DNA of 64,000 nucleotides from Escherichia coli O127:H6 str. E2348/69 (lineage in GTDB: Bacteria > Pseudomonadota > Gammaproteobacteria > Enterobacterales > Enterobacteriaceae). Below the pieces are notes generated by a model. The model made no database searches. It was not told the DNA's origin and saw nothing but the letters and a program-made list of their open reading frames with translations. The stretch is taken from NCBI RefSeq assembly GCF_000026545.1, contig NC_011601.1; one strand, written 5' to 3'. Below are positions 7,649 to 12,285 of this stretch, in pieces. How positions within the stretch are numbered: position 1 is the stretch's first letter; every line of letters begins with the position of its first letter. A program made the translations under genes and the position numbers.

Positions 7649-8481
7649 TAATGACCTACCACACGCCGACCAAAGCGACTTTGCAGAGTGTTAATTGAGA
7701 ACAGCAGCAGCAGGGATGCCGCGAGGATCACCGAAGCAATTGCGCTCGCCGCCGGGTAATCAAACTCCTGTAAGCGCACAAAAATCATCAGCGACGTTAC
7801 TTCTGTTTTCCAGGCGATATTCCCGGCGATAAAAATCACCGCGCCAAACTCACCGAGGCTGCGGGTAAATGACAGCGCCACACCCGCCACCAGCGCCGGA
7901 GATAGTTCCGGCAGCACCACTTTGCGAAAACTCTGCCAGCGCGTAGCACCGAGCGTTTCTGCCGCTTCTTCATATTCCGGGCCTAACTCTTCCAGCACCG
8001 GCTGCACGGTGCGCACCACAAACGGAATGCTGGTAAAGGCCATCGCCACCGCAATCCCCAGCCATGTATAGGTGACTTTGATATCAAACTTCGCCAGCCA
8101 TTCACCGTAAAAACCGTTCACGGAAAAGAGCGAGGCCAGCGTTAAACCGGCGACTGCCGTTGGCAGCGCAAAGGGTAAATCCATCAGCGCATCAAGCAGC
8201 GTGCGGCCCGGAAAGCGATAGCGGGTTAAGATCCACGCCATCAGCAGACCGAAAACGCCGTTAAAAATCGATGCCACAAACGCCGACAGCAGCGTCACTT
8301 TATAGGCTGCGACCACCTGCGGGTTGGTGATCACCTCCCAGTACTGCGCCCAGCTCATCTGGGCCAGTTGCATCACCAGCGCGGAGAGCGGCAGCAGCAA
8401 AATCAGGCACACAAACAGCAGACTGGTGCCGAGGCTTAAGGTAAAGCCCGGCAGCACGCGTCTTGAAGAAACTGCAAACAT
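7648..8481 (-). CDS. cysU: Sulfate/thiosulfate ABC transporter permease
   Basis: 277-aa membrane ORF with start/stop overlap to cysW and cysP. Confidence 0.95.
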   Translation of the reverse strand: MFAVSSRRVLPGFTLSLGTSLLFVCLILLLPLSALVMQLAQMSWAQYWEVITNPQVVAAYKVTLLSAFVASIFNGVFGLLMAWILTRYRFPGRTLLDALMDLPFALPTAVAGLTLASLFSVNGFYGEWLAKFDIKVTYTWLGIAVAMAFTSIPFVVRTVQPVLEELGPEYEEAAETLGATRWQSFRKVVLPELSPALVAGVALSFTRSLGEFGAVIFIAGNIAWKTEVTSLMIFVRLQEFDYPAASAIASVILAASLLLLFSINTLQSRFGRRVVGH

Positions 8482-9497
8482 TACTTACGCCCCGCCGCTA
8501 ACAGCTTGTCTAACTCGCCGCCGCTGGTGAAGTGGGTTTTCATCACTTCCGGCCAGGAGCCAAATTTATCTTCCACGCGGAACAGCTCGGTCTGCGGAAA
8601 TTTATCTTTCAGTTTGCCCATGACTTCCGGGTTATTTACGCGGTAGTAATAGTCGGTGATGATGGTTTGCGCCTGCGGGCTATAGAGCCAGTTCAGGTAA
8701 GCTTTTGCTGCTTTTTCCGTACCGTTGGCCTGCACATTTTTATCGACCCACGCCACCGGGAATTCCGCCAGAATGTTGGTTTTCGGAATCACCACTTCAA
8801 AGCCCTGCGCTTCATACTGTTTACGGATGTTGTTCACTTCCGATTCAAAGCTGATCAACACATCGCCCAGGCCGCGCTCGGCAAAGGTGGTAGTCGCGCC
8901 ACGACCGCCAGTATCGAACACTTCAACGTTTTTCAGGAACTGAGTCATAAACTGTTCAGTTTTGGCTTTGTCGCCACCGTCGGCTTTGTCCGCTGCGCCC
9001 CATGCCGCAAGGTAGGTATAACGCGCGTTACCCGACGTTTTCGGGTTCGGGAAAATCAGCTTCACATCGGAGCGCACCAGGTCGTTCCAGTCGTGGATAT
9101 TCTTCGGGTTGCCCTTACGCACCAGGAAGCCCATGGTGGAGTAGAACGGCGAGCTATTATTCGGCAGGCGCGACTGCCAGTCCGCTGGGATCAGCTTGCC
9201 TTTATCGTGCAGGATTTGTACGTCGGTCACCTGGTTATAAGTGACAACGTCGGCTTTTAAGCCCTGCAAAATCGCCAGCGCCTGTTTTGATGATCCGGCA
9301 TGAGATTGTTTAATCGTCAGTTTGTCGCCACCGTTATCTTTTGCCCATTGCTGTTCAAACGGCGGGTTCAGGGCGGCAAACAGCTCGCGGGAGACGTCAT
9401 AAGAACTGTTCAGCAGTTCCGTTGCCTGTACATGGCCCGCCAGTAGCAGAGAAGCGACCAGCACGAGTGAGTTCTTTTTCAGTAAGTTAACGGCCAT
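8481..9497 (-). CDS. cysP: Thiosulfate-binding periplasmic protein
   Basis: 338-aa ORF with signal peptide; first gene of the cysPUWAM operon. Confidence 0.95.
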
Positions 9498-9636
9498 TGC
9501 GCACCCTTATAAATTTAACGACTTTCTAATAGCCATCATATTTATAACGGACGTGAAAGGAGTAACGGTTTTATATACCGTTTGGTGATTTGGAAGTTGA
9601 AAAGGGAATAAGACGAAATCCTCCCCACAAATGCAG

Positions 9637-11186
9637 CTGTCTCTTATACACAAATCCCCACCCGGGGATTTGTGATGTCTGTCAGTCTGCTTTAGGGGGA
9701 CTCTTTCCATCCGGTAGTTTCCTTCCTCCCCGGCAGCGATTTTTTGAACTTTTTCCTCACCCGTTGATCTTCTCTTATATTTCATTTTCTTCGGGTCTGT
9801 TATGGTACTTTCTGATTGTTATTCATGGGCTAACGAGCAGTTTGGACATGCCCGTCTCGGTGATCCGCGTCGTACACGACGCCTTGTGTCACTGGCCTCT
9901 TCTCTCGCTCAGCATGCAGGTCTTTCTATTGTGAAATCATCCCAGTCCACTGCTCAGGTTGAAGGTGCGTACCGCCTGATACGTAACCCGTCTGTGTCCC
10001 CGCAAGCCATTGCCGAAGCCGGATTTACCGCCACTGTAAGGACATGTGAGGCTCATCCGCTGCTCCTCGCGCTGGAAGACACCACCACCATTAACTTCAG
10101 TCACAGTACGGCATCTGATGACCTGGGGAATACCACCACTAACCCGAAGACGCGCGGGCTGCTGGCTCACTCTGTCCTGATGTACGCCCCCGACAGCGCC
10201 CTGCCAGTCGGTCTTATCGAACAGCAGCGCTGGAGTCGTGCCACGGACACCTACGGTGTTAAGCACCAGCGAAAAGAACGTCCCTATGAAGAAAAAGAAA
10301 GTTACCGCTGGCAGCAGGCTTCGGAGCGCATGGCCGAACGGCTGGGGGAGATACAGAAACGGGTAATCACTGTCTGTGACCGGGAAGCGGATATCTGGCA
10401 TTACCTGCATTATAAAGTCAGCCACGGGCAGCGCTTCGTGGTGCGTGCAGCACAGAATCGCCGGCTGGAAGAAGCACCCGGCAAGCTCTTCGAACTGCCG
10501 GAAGTCCTGGCAACCGCGGGAAGCCACACGCTGAATGTGATGCAAAAAGGCGGGCGGGCAGCCCGCCAGGCCCGGATGTTCATCAGTTACAGCGAAGTCA
10601 GCATAAAAAATCCCGACAACAGCGGCCAGGCGCTCCCGCTCACGTATGTCTGTTGCCGGGAGCAGGCAGAGGACGGCGCCTGCTGGCATCTGCTGACGTC
10701 AGAAAAAGTGGCGAGTGCCGCCGATGCGCGACGTATCGTCAGCCATTACGAGCGACGCTGGCTGATAGAGGAATACCACAAGGCGTGGAAAAGTGGTGGT
10801 ACATGTGTGGAATCGCTGCGAATGCAGACCCGGGATAACCTCGAGCGCATGGTGGTTATCAAGGCGTTTATCGCGGTGCGGGTGCTGGGCCTGCGGCAGG
10901 GCGGTATCAGTGAAGAAACACAAAATGACAGCTGTGAGAAAATACTGACGCCGACAGAGTGGAAACTGCTGTGGGTTAAGCTGGAAGGAAAACCGCTTCC
11001 GTCACAGATGCCGACACTGAAATGGGCCTGTCTGAAACTGGCGAAACTGGGGCGATGGCATGACAGCAAACGCACCGGTCGCCCCGGTTGGGTAGTCATG
11101 TGGGATGGCTGGTTCAGACTTCAGGATATGGTTGAGGGTTACCTGGTGATGAAGTCTCTTGATCAGGAGATCTGATCAAGAGACAG
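9637..11186 (+). mobile_element. IS4-family insertion sequence of the IS50/Tn5 type (~1.55 kb), flanked by a 9-10 bp direct repeat
   Basis: Left end ctgtctcttatacacaaat resembles the Tn5 outside end; right end agatctgatcaagagacag is the reverse complement of the Tn5 inside-end sequence as I recall it (two GATC sites). Direct repeat acaaatgcag at 9627-9636 and 11187-11196. Confidence 0.85.
9802..11175 (+). CDS. IS50-like (Tn5-type) DDE transposase
   Basis: 457-aa ORF with ...LGDPRRTRRLV..., ...VCDREADI... and ...YERRWLIEEYHKAWKSGG... motifs that parallel Tn5 Tnp motifs; clearly diverged from Tn5 Tnp itself. Stop codon lies inside the right terminal repeat as in IS50. Confidence 0.9.
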   Translation: MVLSDCYSWANEQFGHARLGDPRRTRRLVSLASSLAQHAGLSIVKSSQSTAQVEGAYRLIRNPSVSPQAIAEAGFTATVRTCEAHPLLLALEDTTTINFSHSTASDDLGNTTTNPKTRGLLAHSVLMYAPDSALPVGLIEQQRWSRATDTYGVKHQRKERPYEEKESYRWQQASERMAERLGEIQKRVITVCDREADIWHYLHYKVSHGQRFVVRAAQNRRLEEAPGKLFELPEVLATAGSHTLNVMQKGGRAARQARMFISYSEVSIKNPDNSGQALPLTYVCCREQAEDGACWHLLTSEKVASAADARRIVSHYERRWLIEEYHKAWKSGGTCVESLRMQTRDNLERMVVIKAFIAVRVLGLRQGGISEETQNDSCEKILTPTEWKLLWVKLEGKPLPSQMPTLKWACLKLAKLGRWHDSKRTGRPGWVVMWDGWFRLQDMVEGYLVMKSLDQEI

Positions 11187-11214
11187 ACAAATGCAGGGAG
11201 GAAACAGAGGTGAA

Positions 11215-12006
11215 TCAGATGCCGACGCTAACCGTCTCCGGTAGTGTGCTGCCGCCATCAATCACATTCTGTGTACCGGTTAAATAGCTGGATTCATCCG
11301 ATGCGAGGAAGGCCGCCAGTTCGCCGACTTCCAGCGGATCGGCGAGGCGACGCATCGGGATTGCTTTCGCCATTTCAGTCAGCACCGATTCTGGATCTTC
11401 CGGGTTTGACTGGCGGGCAATGCTTTCCGCCATTGGCGTGCGAACGTATCCAGGGCAGATGGCGTTAACGCGAATACCAGACTGCGCGTACTCCACCGCC
11501 AGCGATTTAGTCAGGCCAACAATCGCCGCTTTCGTTAAGGCGTACGCCGTTTCACCCGGGTCTGCCACCATATCGCCAGTAACTGAAGACATCATCACAA
11601 TGCGGCCATCTTTGCGGGCAATCATCTCCGGCAGCACCGCCTTCGTGACGTTCCATACGCCTTTTATATTGATATCAATATGGAAATCGCGATCTTCATC
11701 GCTCATATCGAGGAAACTGCCCAGACGACAAACGCCTGCGTTATTCACCAGAATATCAATGCGCCCTTCTTTTTCCTTAGCGCGCTTAATAGCTGCGGCT
11801 ACCGACGCCGGGTCACGCACATCGGCGACAACCGCCGTACAGCGATGACCACGACCACACAGTTCGTCCGCCAGCTTTTCGATCTCAGGGGAGATATCCA
11901 GCAAGATTAGGTTTGCGCCATGACGCGCAAAAGTTCTGGCAATTCCTTCGCCAATTCCCTGCAATGCGCCCGTAATCAGTGCTGTCTTGCCCGTGAGTTT
12001 ACCCAT
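11215..12006 (-). CDS. ucpA: Short-chain dehydrogenase/reductase UcpA
   Basis: Starts MGKLTGKTALITGALQGIGEGIA (Rossmann TGxxxGxG) with AGGAG RBS upstream; the track ORF extends 22 codons further upstream but the RBS supports this start. Confidence 0.9.
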   Translation of the reverse strand: MGKLTGKTALITGALQGIGEGIARTFARHGANLILLDISPEIEKLADELCGRGHRCTAVVADVRDPASVAAAIKRAKEKEGRIDILVNNAGVCRLGSFLDMSDEDRDFHIDINIKGVWNVTKAVLPEMIARKDGRIVMMSSVTGDMVADPGETAYALTKAAIVGLTKSLAVEYAQSGIRVNAICPGYVRTPMAESIARQSNPEDPESVLTEMAKAIPMRRLADPLEVGELAAFLASDESSYLTGTQNVIDGGSTLPETVSVGI

Positions 12007-12285
12007 TTTAATGCTCTCCTTGTTAATACAGAGCGTTACACTCCATTCCCTCTGAAAATACAGGATAAACAAAATATTGCTGCGGATCAGCTCACTAATT
12101 CAGGAAAATCTCAATTTAGTCGCTGCTTTATGCAGCACCTCAAGCGTTACGTCAGCGCGCAATCATTTTCAGTGACATCACATGAGTAATATTCGGACTT
12201 AATGATTCCTTTGTGTCTATCAAATCGGGATATATGATCCCATTTATCTGCAATTATTTGATCGCAAATATTAAGGTCACCACCG

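Follow-up and report, generated by a model that had tools for sequence, protein, structure and literature searches.

The window analyzed here, a stretch of 64,000 nucleotides from Escherichia coli O127:H6 str. E2348/69, contains a complete insertion sequence (IS) of 1550 bp (9637-11186, by direct reading and script) in the spacer between ucpA and cysP (Table 1). RefSeq annotation places the element 28 bp from the ucpA stop codon and 139 bp from the cysP ATG at 9497, in agreement with the position given by a sequence-only reading of the same DNA. The element is identical over 1550/1550 bp to E2348/69 copies annotated as 'IS4-like element ISEc13 family transposase', and exact-sequence look-up of its transposase returned 'transposase of ISEc13 [Escherichia coli O127:H6]' (CAS08601.1 and CAS10159.1, NCBI), UniRef naming it likewise; 823 records have a best match to the element at an identity of at least 99%, and 873 genomes carry full copies. 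The window element is ISEc13, a member of the IS50 subgroup of the IS4 family. The sequence-only reading left the element unnamed; ISEc13 is named and annotated in the published genome. Both the name and the exact ucpA-cysP insertion are already present in the public annotation of this reference pathogen genome.

Table 1. Features of the ucpA-cysP spacer and the ISEc13 copy within it (window coordinates)
Feature	Position	Strand	Basis and remarks
cysP, first gene of cysPUWAM	8481..9497	-	RefSeq annotation of identical record
cysP -10 region GTTATAAATAT	9537..9547	-	conservation; hexamer TATAAA at 9546-9541
conserved block CTTATTCCCTTTTCAACTTCCAAATCACCAAACGGTATATAAAACCGTTACTCCTTTC, putative CysB activation site	9555..9612	-	footprint; intact
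predicted ucpA terminator, 3' arm GUGGGGAGGA (9628-9619) and U-rich tail UUUCGUCUUAUU (9618-9607)	9607..9628	-	fold
10-bp target duplication ACAAATGCAG, left copy	9627..9636	.	direct reading, script
ISEc13, full copy	9637..11186	+	100% identity to annotated E2348/69 copies
left terminal inverted repeat CTGTCTCTTATACACAAAT	9637..9655	+	script; OE/ME from PMC2566895
left sub-terminal perfect hairpin	9649..9674	+	11-bp arms, 4-nt loop; overlaps end positions 13-19
transposase gene, 457 aa	9802..11175	+	ORF list, Pfam, structure matches
strongest antisense terminator-like site within the IS	10549..10567	-	7 G-C pairs then TTTTT
right sub-terminal perfect hairpin	11154..11184	+	13-bp arms, 5-nt loop
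right terminal inverted repeat CTGTCTCTTGATCAGATCT (reverse complement)	11168..11186	-	script
10-bp target duplication ACAAATGCAG, right copy	11187..11196	.	direct reading, script
predicted ucpA terminator, 5' arm UCCUCCCUGC	11193..11202	-	fold of reconstructed empty site
ucpA, SDR oxidoreductase	11215..12006	-	RefSeq; stop at 11215, 28 bp from IS right end

The IS50 subgroup is tabulated with lengths of 1350-1550 bp, direct repeats of 8-9 bp and ends of the pattern CW------Y---CA-A--W- with 5'-NT termini, and the IS4 family is marked by a single transposase ORF lacking a frameshift (PMC2266710); ISEc13 is absent from the supplements of the IS4-family paper. The size of the window element falls inside the subgroup range and its transposase is encoded by one uninterrupted ORF, which carries the Pfam domains Tnp_DNA_bind, DDE_Tnp_1 and Dimer_Tnp_Tn5 and matches Tn5 transposase structures with E = 5e-84. 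Identity to the IS50 transposase is 39% across 480 aligned columns and nucleotide identity about 55% in local alignment, so that, together with the Tn5-type domains, the enzyme is indeed Tn5-related yet distinct, as had been proposed. Catalytic residues D93, D193 and E323 align with D97, D188 and E326 of Tn5, their spacings of 99 and 129 residues lying within the IS4-family arrangement D(60-110)D(100-150)E, and the Y(2)R(3)E(6)K signature is intact (Y316, R319, E323 and K330). A 250-aa antisense ORF at 9937-10689 was rejected as a gene, there being nothing beyond its length in its favour. A consensus promoter scan of 9400-11400 gave no match on either strand, locating neither a transposase promoter nor an outward one.

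The left end of the element matches the Tn5 outside end (OE) and the mosaic end (ME), as taken from PMC2566895, at 17/19 positions each, with its first 16 nt being those of the mosaic end. The right end matches the IS50 inside end (IE) at 19/19 positions and contains two GATC Dam sites (11169 and 11174), with a third at 11161, which bears out the OE-like and IE-like character assigned to the two termini. The IE reference was read from pSTM6-275, beside aph(3')-IIa; the Tn5 OE was not found in the IS50 copy of that plasmid, which is truncated. Both ends match the IS50-subgroup pattern at positions 1, 2, 9, 13-14, 16 and 19, and in the 64-kb window the motif CTGTCTCTT-N3-CA occurs without mismatch at these two ends only. 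A TATAAG stands 7 bp from the left tip. The transposase stop codon falls within the right sub-terminal hairpin, which also spans much the greater part of the IE-like end.

Both copies of the target duplication directly adjoin the element ends. The uninterrupted region of an IS-free relative, Z0117EC0036, reads ...atcctccccACAAATGCAGggaggaaac..., with one ACAAATGCAG copy and no gap, confirming the direct repeat; every element of the earlier description of a Tn5/IS50-like insertion sequence with flanking repeats is present in the sequence. A 9-bp duplication accompanied by one chance base is ruled out, as the empty site has a single 10-bp copy; in addition, both junctions obey the half-site rule described below only with a 10-bp duplication. 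Among 5426 complete E. coli genomes, the insertion, detected as a match to a 2360-bp junction region, is found in three, all E2348/69 assemblies, and 5422 have the empty site. ISEc13 entered the ucpA-cysP spacer in the E2348/69 lineage only.

On the ucpA side, the element lies within a hairpin that follows the gene, parting its two arms. The reconstructed empty site folds into a 10-bp stem with an AUUU loop (-17.3 kcal/mol) followed by the U-rich tail, and Citrobacter, Pseudocitrobacter and other Escherichia species have a hairpin at this position too, built from a different sequence. The predicted intrinsic terminator of ucpA is split and destroyed by the IS, which gives a more precise form to the earlier suggestion that the insertion could alter ucpA termination. 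Because the hairpin is split, read-through of ucpA into the IS is expected; the transcripts would run antisense into the element and probably stop at internal terminator-like sites, five of which are present on the minus strand versus 1.7 expected. The strongest of these would be the likely end point of read-through. A scan of 8000-13000 against Rfam produced no match.

On the cysP side, a phylogenetic footprint was constructed from 80 sequences of 79 Enterobacteriaceae species. Conservation starts abruptly at 9612 and continues to 9555, and is observed again at 9547-9537, in the -10 region; the IS begins at 9637, which lies upstream of the first conserved position by 25 bp and inside a non-conserved stretch. 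From the hexamer, the cysP start is predicted near 9534; relative to it, the IS junction lies at about -103 and the putative CysB activation site at about -78 to -21. The latter position agrees with an activation site whose centre is 50-60 bp before the start (PMC11329422). The sequence-only reading had expected CysB-dependent promoter elements where the IS sits; as far as the footprint indicates, the CysB sites are all downstream of the insertion and, with the -10 region, intact, an arrangement which that reading had itself listed as counter-evidence. The cysP promoter is probably untouched by the IS, because the conserved sequence begins 25 bp to the cysP side of it. In an E2348/69 microarray experiment on a subject other than sulfur limitation, cysP, cysU, cysW and cysA shift 2-3-fold alongside cysDNC and cysHIJ (PMC3891560), a modest co-change consistent with retained cys-regulon control of cysPUWA.

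Target choice was investigated at 22 independent ISEc13 insertions, comprising 44 half-sites. C is present at both -4 and -2 in all 44/44 half-sites, C or T at -3 in 43/44, T or C at -1 in 40/44 and C at -5 in 31/44, yielding a half-site consensus of 5'-CCYCT with each junction directly 3' of it on each strand; the strict target consensus is expected 0.14 times per 64 kb. The usual duplication length is 8 bp (15 sites), with 9 bp at five sites, 7 bp at one and 10 bp solely at the window copy; the 8- and 9-bp cases agree with the range tabulated for the IS50 subgroup, from which the 7-bp case and the window copy depart. Half-sites may be 7-10 bp apart, suggesting that duplication length is set by the target and not by the enzyme. 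For about half of the 22 sites, matches had been ranked using the window flanks as query, a procedure that could favour similar flanks; this concern is removed by the 12 sites sampled without regard to flanks (L003 and L009-L019), 12/12 of which follow the half-site rule. One further locus, L029, was left out of the set, its ends having no match to the search words. No description of a target rule for ISEc13 was found in the searchable literature, where eight papers name the element, each once. We propose, tentatively and at slightly less than even confidence, that ISEc13 stands within the Tn5 subgroup as an element that chooses its targets by sequence, joining 3' of CCYCT half-sites spaced 7-10 bp apart and so homing to G+C-rich terminator stems and intergenic palindromes of a similar kind. 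Terminator stems often contain the CCYCT motif, and the strict half-site rule would account for the accumulation of ISEc13 after genes.

The same insertions could be read differently, with ISEc13 recognising structure in the DNA, such as a cruciform or hairpin extruded at terminators, and not a short motif. In favour of this, 13 of the 22 empty sites fold more stably than all but roughly 1% of random 40-mers and are unusually strong hairpins, 6/10 sites in one genome lie 24-59 bp past a stop codon and duplication length changes with arm spacing. However, L007, L008, L010 and L022 fold no better than random sequence and L006, L008 and L022 are insertions interrupting coding sequences, yet these non-folding and coding-sequence sites all keep the half-site with its invariant C at -4 and -2; moreover, none of the targets examined is a hairpin of other stem sequence. 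We consider recognition of structure unlikely. Somewhat less probable again is the proposal that the insertion changes cysPUWAM regulation, whether by an outward promoter at the left end, by loss of upstream sequence on which CysB-induced bending depends or by a block to read-through from ucpA that would normally add to cysP transcription. In its favour, no more than about 103 bp separate the IS from the predicted cysP start and 25 bp separate it from the conserved block, TATAAG is present at the left tip with an adjacent hairpin that could affect local structure, and the U tract of the native ucpA terminator is poor, so that some read-through into cysP may normally occur and would now be lost. 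Against this, all of the conserved upstream sequence is retained, cysPUWA act like other cys operons in the E2348/69 arrays (PMC3891560), the insertion is kept across three independent assemblies of the strain lineage and no promoter-like site was detected on either strand at 9400-11400, by a consensus scan crude enough for a weak outward promoter to escape it.

We regard as very unlikely, the least probable of the alternatives, that the window copy is a dead relic, complete but immobile through, for example, A81T or host silencing, and fixed as a scar. The window copy has the same structure as the ISEc13 reference, and its transposase differs from the commonest variant, WP_000244358.1, by a single residue, T for A at position 81. 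Exact-protein look-up placed this variant at only two distinct sites in E2348/69 and at one metagenomic site, against ten sites for the much more widely distributed dominant variant, and many E. coli genomes hold ISEc13 fragments alone, observations which a relic would fit. On the other hand, the window copy keeps an unbroken ORF, two complete ends and its catalytic residues, and a second copy of its variant, at L003, has its own 9-bp duplication, which implies at least one transposition or copying event for this variant. E2348/69, an EPEC strain, carries 27-30 copies in all, and the other 26-29 could act in trans to move the window copy even if it were defective. The intact ORF, one residue removed from the dominant variant, and the presence of 27-32 near-identical copies per genome suggest that the window copy is probably still an active element.

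Combined, we consider it highly probable that the locus carries a complete, probably active ISEc13 that inserted in accordance with a symmetric target rule, split a hairpin and spared the cysP promoter. ISEc13 would be a cut-and-paste DDE insertion sequence inserting at a symmetric target, with strand transfer on each strand directly 3' of a 5'-CCYCT half-site, and the sequence enclosed by the pair of half-sites would become the duplication, 8 bp long in most copies and 10 bp in this one. ISEc13 would have landed in the ucpA-cysP spacer because of this symmetric target, the G+C-rich stem of the ucpA terminator (CCTCCCC...GGGAGG) supplying the pair of half-sites. Since the whole cysP promoter (putative CysB activation site, -10 region and leader) would lie on the cysP side of the insertion and no outward consensus promoter was detected, little or no change is expected in the control of cysPUWAM by CysB, a prediction that the array data support indirectly.

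Elements of the IS50/Tn5 family transpose by cut-and-paste through DNA hairpin intermediates. ISEc13 resembles them in its single transposase ORF ending within the right end, in its DNA-binding, DDE and Tn5-dimerisation domains, in the alignment of its DDE and YREK residues and in its termini, the right one being fully IE-like, Dam sites included, and the left one close to OE; because of this shared architecture and the conserved ends and catalytic residues, ISEc13 probably works, by analogy, as Tn5 does. Unlike IS50, with which its limited amino acid identity marks it as a related but distinct IS, ISEc13 is 1550 rather than 1534 bp long, has perfect sub-terminal hairpins at both ends and, by direct reading, is without an in-frame ATG near residue 55 for an Inh-like inhibitor. 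Tn5 generates a fixed 9-bp duplication at a weak target consensus, A-GNTYWRANC-T, in contrast to the 7-10 bp duplications and strict CCYCT half-sites of ISEc13. Two other IS4-family elements, IS186, which targets GGGG(N6-7)CCCC, and IS231A, which targets GGG(N5)CCC, have in common with ISEc13 a short symmetric G/C-rich target and duplications of variable length; however, the subgroups differ and the polarity of the ISEc13 target is opposite, a C-run preceding a G-run (CCYCT-N8-AGRGG). Insertion sequences that home to palindromic intergenic repeats (REP/BIME) belong to other families (IS3, IS110/IS1111 and others). The outcome is similar for ISEc13, whose copies gather at hairpins in the spacers that follow genes and cause little damage there, but ISEc13 also enters coding sequences which carry the short motif (L006, L008 and L022). 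For some IS4-family members, 'spectacular' specificity of insertion within the target arms has been described, together with variable direct repeats (PMC2266710).

The ucpA-cysP insertion itself is of little consequence, being already annotated and with the evidence favouring an intact cysP promoter, and the target rule is a modest bonus. In E2348/69, ucpA, with its predicted terminator lost, probably produces antisense ISEc13 RNA. The mosaic end is probably also the Nextera adapter sequence. Because the ends of ISEc13 differ very little from the Tn5 IE, OE and mosaic ends, resident copies could interact with Tn5-based mutagenesis and their ends could be clipped by adapter trimming in carrier strains; strong target selectivity in a relative with nearly Tn5 ends could, in turn, interest those who engineer Tn5-type transposases. 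If true, the target rule would set ISEc13 apart from Tn5, which has nearly the same ends but inserts almost at random with a fixed 9-bp duplication, and homing to G+C-rich terminator stems would provide a low-cost niche which would explain how ISEc13 reaches 27-32 copies per genome.

The element in the ucpA-cysP spacer is a copy of ISEc13: along its whole length it shows 100% identity to E2348/69 copies that bear the annotation 'IS4-like element ISEc13 family transposase', and an exact protein look-up returned 'transposase of ISEc13 [Escherichia coli O127:H6]'. E2348/69 carries 27–30 copies per chromosome, with more on pMAR2. A 2360-bp region across both junctions is matched in full in only 3 of 5426 complete genomes, all E2348/69 assemblies (LT827011.1, LT903847.1 and CP059840.2), and an empty-site query, from which the IS and one repeat copy were taken out, finds a one-piece match in 5422 genomes. 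Thus, the insertion is lineage-specific. The empty site of strain Z0117EC0036 reads ...atcctccccACAAATGCAGggaggaaac..., indicating that the 10-bp repeat arose by genuine target duplication. The sequence-only reading had described the element with its direct repeat, which is confirmed: 1550 bp lie between the 10-bp copies, and the empty site has a single copy. Both ISEc13 and this insertion were already known and annotated. Approximately 2100 further E. coli genomes hold only fragments of ISEc13-like sequence, including 452-bp left parts annotated 'IS4/Tn5 family transposase DNA-binding protein', 120–320-bp right parts on plasmids and solo right ends of 33 bp.

The transposase contains three Pfam domains (Tnp_DNA_bind, DDE_Tnp_1 and Dimer_Tnp_Tn5), its residues 6–453 match Tn5 transposase structures (E = 5e-84), and D93, D193 and E323, together with the YREK residues Y316, R319, E323 and K330, are present at family-typical spacing. 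Identity to the IS50 transposase is 39%, so that its earlier description as Tn5-related but clearly distinct was accurate. Classification of the element as IS50/Tn5-like was likewise correct. Its size and terminal pattern fit the values listed for the IS50 subgroup in 'IS4 family goes genomic' (PMC2266710), and so do the duplication lengths at most sites. By family membership, ISEc13 would use cut-and-paste chemistry. In the window sequence the left end is CTGTCTCTTATACACAAAT and the right end, reading inward, is CTGTCTCTTGATCAGATCT, three GATC sites lying within the last 26 bp of the element; a search of the 64-kb window detected the terminal motif without mismatch only at these two ends. In the right sub-terminal hairpin, the IE-like end forms part of the palindrome and the transposase stop codon lies inside it. 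Insulation from outside transcription, mRNA stability and transposase binding are possible roles of the sub-terminal hairpins. A 250-aa ORF antisense to the transposase gene (9937–10689, - strand) is probably a by-product of composition.

Features of the ISEc13 copy between ucpA and cysP (window coordinates)
Feature	Coordinates	Strand	Description	Basis
Insertion element	9637-11186		1550 bp	direct reading + script
Flanking repeat, left copy	9627-9636		ACAAATGCAG	direct reading + script
Flanking repeat, right copy	11187-11196		ACAAATGCAG	direct reading + script
Transposase ORF	9802-11175	+	457 codons, most of element, stop inside right end	ORF reading
Sub-terminal hairpin, just inside left end	9649-9674		perfect, 11-bp arms, 4-nt loop	
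Sub-terminal hairpin, just inside right end	11154-11184		perfect, 13-bp arms, 5-nt loop	

At the sites examined, insertion of ISEc13 follows a target-site rule. Flanks were gathered by exact-protein look-up, IS-alone matches and matches in other genomes, leaving 22 independent sites once duplicates were dropped and one inversion pair resolved, and half-sites of both strands were aligned at the junction (n = 44). C is invariant at positions -4 and -2 (44/44 each) and predominates at -5 (31/44), position -3 is C (32/44) or T (11/44) and position -1 is T (28/44) or C (12/44). The consensus half-site is therefore 5'-CCYCT followed by the joint, and the full target CCYCT-N8-AGRGG. Of the 22 duplications, 15 are 8 bp long, five 9 bp and one 7 bp, the window copy having the only one of 10 bp; the register of the joint to each half-site is constant in 22/22, indicating that duplication length equals half-site spacing. 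All copies examined, those with flanks from other sites or genomes (L003, L006-L019, L021-L028, L031 and L032) and that in the window (9620–9636/11187–11201), lie at 5'-CCYCT-N(7-10)-AGRGG; the window site fits on both strands (top ...CCTCCCC^ACAA, bottom ...CCTCC^CTGC). For roughly half of the sites the query carried the window flanks, a possible bias towards similar flanks, but the rule was kept in 12/12 sites sampled independently of flanks (L003, L009-L019). The strict consensus is a rare one, found 0 times in the window, with 0.14 expected.

Many of these targets are terminator hairpins just past stop codons, 6 of 10 copies in one genome lying 24–59 bp past a stop. Recognition of structure might account for this, as 13 of the 22 empty sites, when reconstructed and folded, surpass about the 1st percentile of random 40-mers, several with T tails. 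However, non-folding sites (L007, L008, L010 and L022) and insertions in coding sequence (L006, L008 and L022) still carry the motif, which argues that ISEc13 seems to read sequence rather than structure, terminators being targeted because their stems often hold the motif. This half-site rule with spacing-dependent duplication length is the only part for which we could not find an earlier description in a search of published papers, eight of which name ISEc13, each listed with one mention; the IS4-family review (PMC2266710) does not cover ISEc13.

In CP148541.1, the duplications of two inverted copies (L015 and L016, near 2.305 Mb and 2.366 Mb) are exchanged, CTCCCCAA and CGAACCAG cross-matching, which indicates a ~60 kb inversion by IS-IS recombination; the fklB-side site of this pair is intact in L021. 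L004/L005 and L026/L027 represent one shared insertion site adjoining ibsE, L004 and L005 being without the left 8-bp duplication copy TCCTCGGG through a small deletion beside the IS. The right flank AGGGGCGAGGGGACCGTTCG is common to two different sites, L025 and L016, so that ISEc13 also inserts in a repeated G+C-rich intergenic element.

On the ucpA side, the sense strand of the empty site forms a hairpin (-17.3 kcal/mol) in which a 10-bp stem (UCCUCCCUGC/GUGGGGAGGA) closes an AUUU loop; it starts 11 nt past the ucpA stop and is followed by the tail UUUCGUCUUAUU. The same hairpin follows ucpA in other Escherichia species, and Citrobacter and Pseudocitrobacter have a hairpin of different sequence there, immediately ahead of the conserved block upstream of cysP. 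A position kept while the sequence changes between genera is what an intrinsic terminator would be expected to show. The IS places the hairpin arms 1560 bp apart (1550 bp of element and one copy of the 10-bp duplication). The suggested effect on ucpA termination is supported. The ucpA 3' region now meets the 13-bp sub-terminal IS hairpin, without a U tract, and ~460–640 nt further into the IS the antisense strand has terminator-like sites, the strongest at 10567–10549. We infer read-through from ucpA into the IS, ending there; such sites would halt transcription coming in at the right end. Five terminator-like sites occur within the IS at 10305–10722 (- strand), compared with 1.7 expected.

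On the cysP side, cysP loci of GTDB species representatives were compared: for 79 of them, the 263 nt that precede the start codon were aligned with the reconstructed E2348/69 empty site. Conservation is low across the ucpA end and hairpin, jumps to >90% at 9612, stays high as far as 9555, dips for ~7 nt and returns over GTTATAAATAT (9547–9537) and the leader. Taking TATAAA (9546–9541) as the -10 hexamer, the cysP start is predicted near 9534, which would place the conserved block at ~-78 to -21. Such a position is in keeping with the CBS-P1 footprint of -85 to -41. The IS junction lies at ~-103 relative to the predicted start, 25 bp beyond the block, and placement of the IS among CysB sites is consequently unsupported. 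The putative position of the block also agrees with that of the CysB activation site, centred 50–60 bp upstream of the start (PMC11329422). A promoter scan detected no outward-facing consensus promoter from the IS. In an E2348/69 microarray (ler+ vs ler-, late log), cysP/U/W/A shift 2–3-fold alongside cysD/N/C and cysH/I/J (PMC3891560), as retained cys-regulon control would give, in an array designed for another question. In Klebsiella and Enterobacter (L047, L048, L051 and L054), long G+C-rich palindromic repeats (CCCTCTCCC...GGGAGAGGG) lengthen the spacer that precedes the conserved cysP block, and these repeats also fit the ISEc13 target motif.

The ends closely resemble those of Tn5. Over its first 16 nt, CTGTCTCTTATACACA (9637–9652), the left end equals the Tn5 mosaic end, and in all it matches the outside and mosaic ends at 17/19 positions each (Tn5 sequences from PMC2566895). 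The right end is identical at 19/19 positions to the IS50 inside end, taken from an IS50 copy adjoining aph(3')-IIa. The mosaic end is probably the Nextera adapter sequence as well. In strains with 27–32 ISEc13 copies, such near-Tn5 ends may give rise to adapter-trimming artefacts at ISEc13 junctions and may permit cross-mobilisation with Tn5-based tools.
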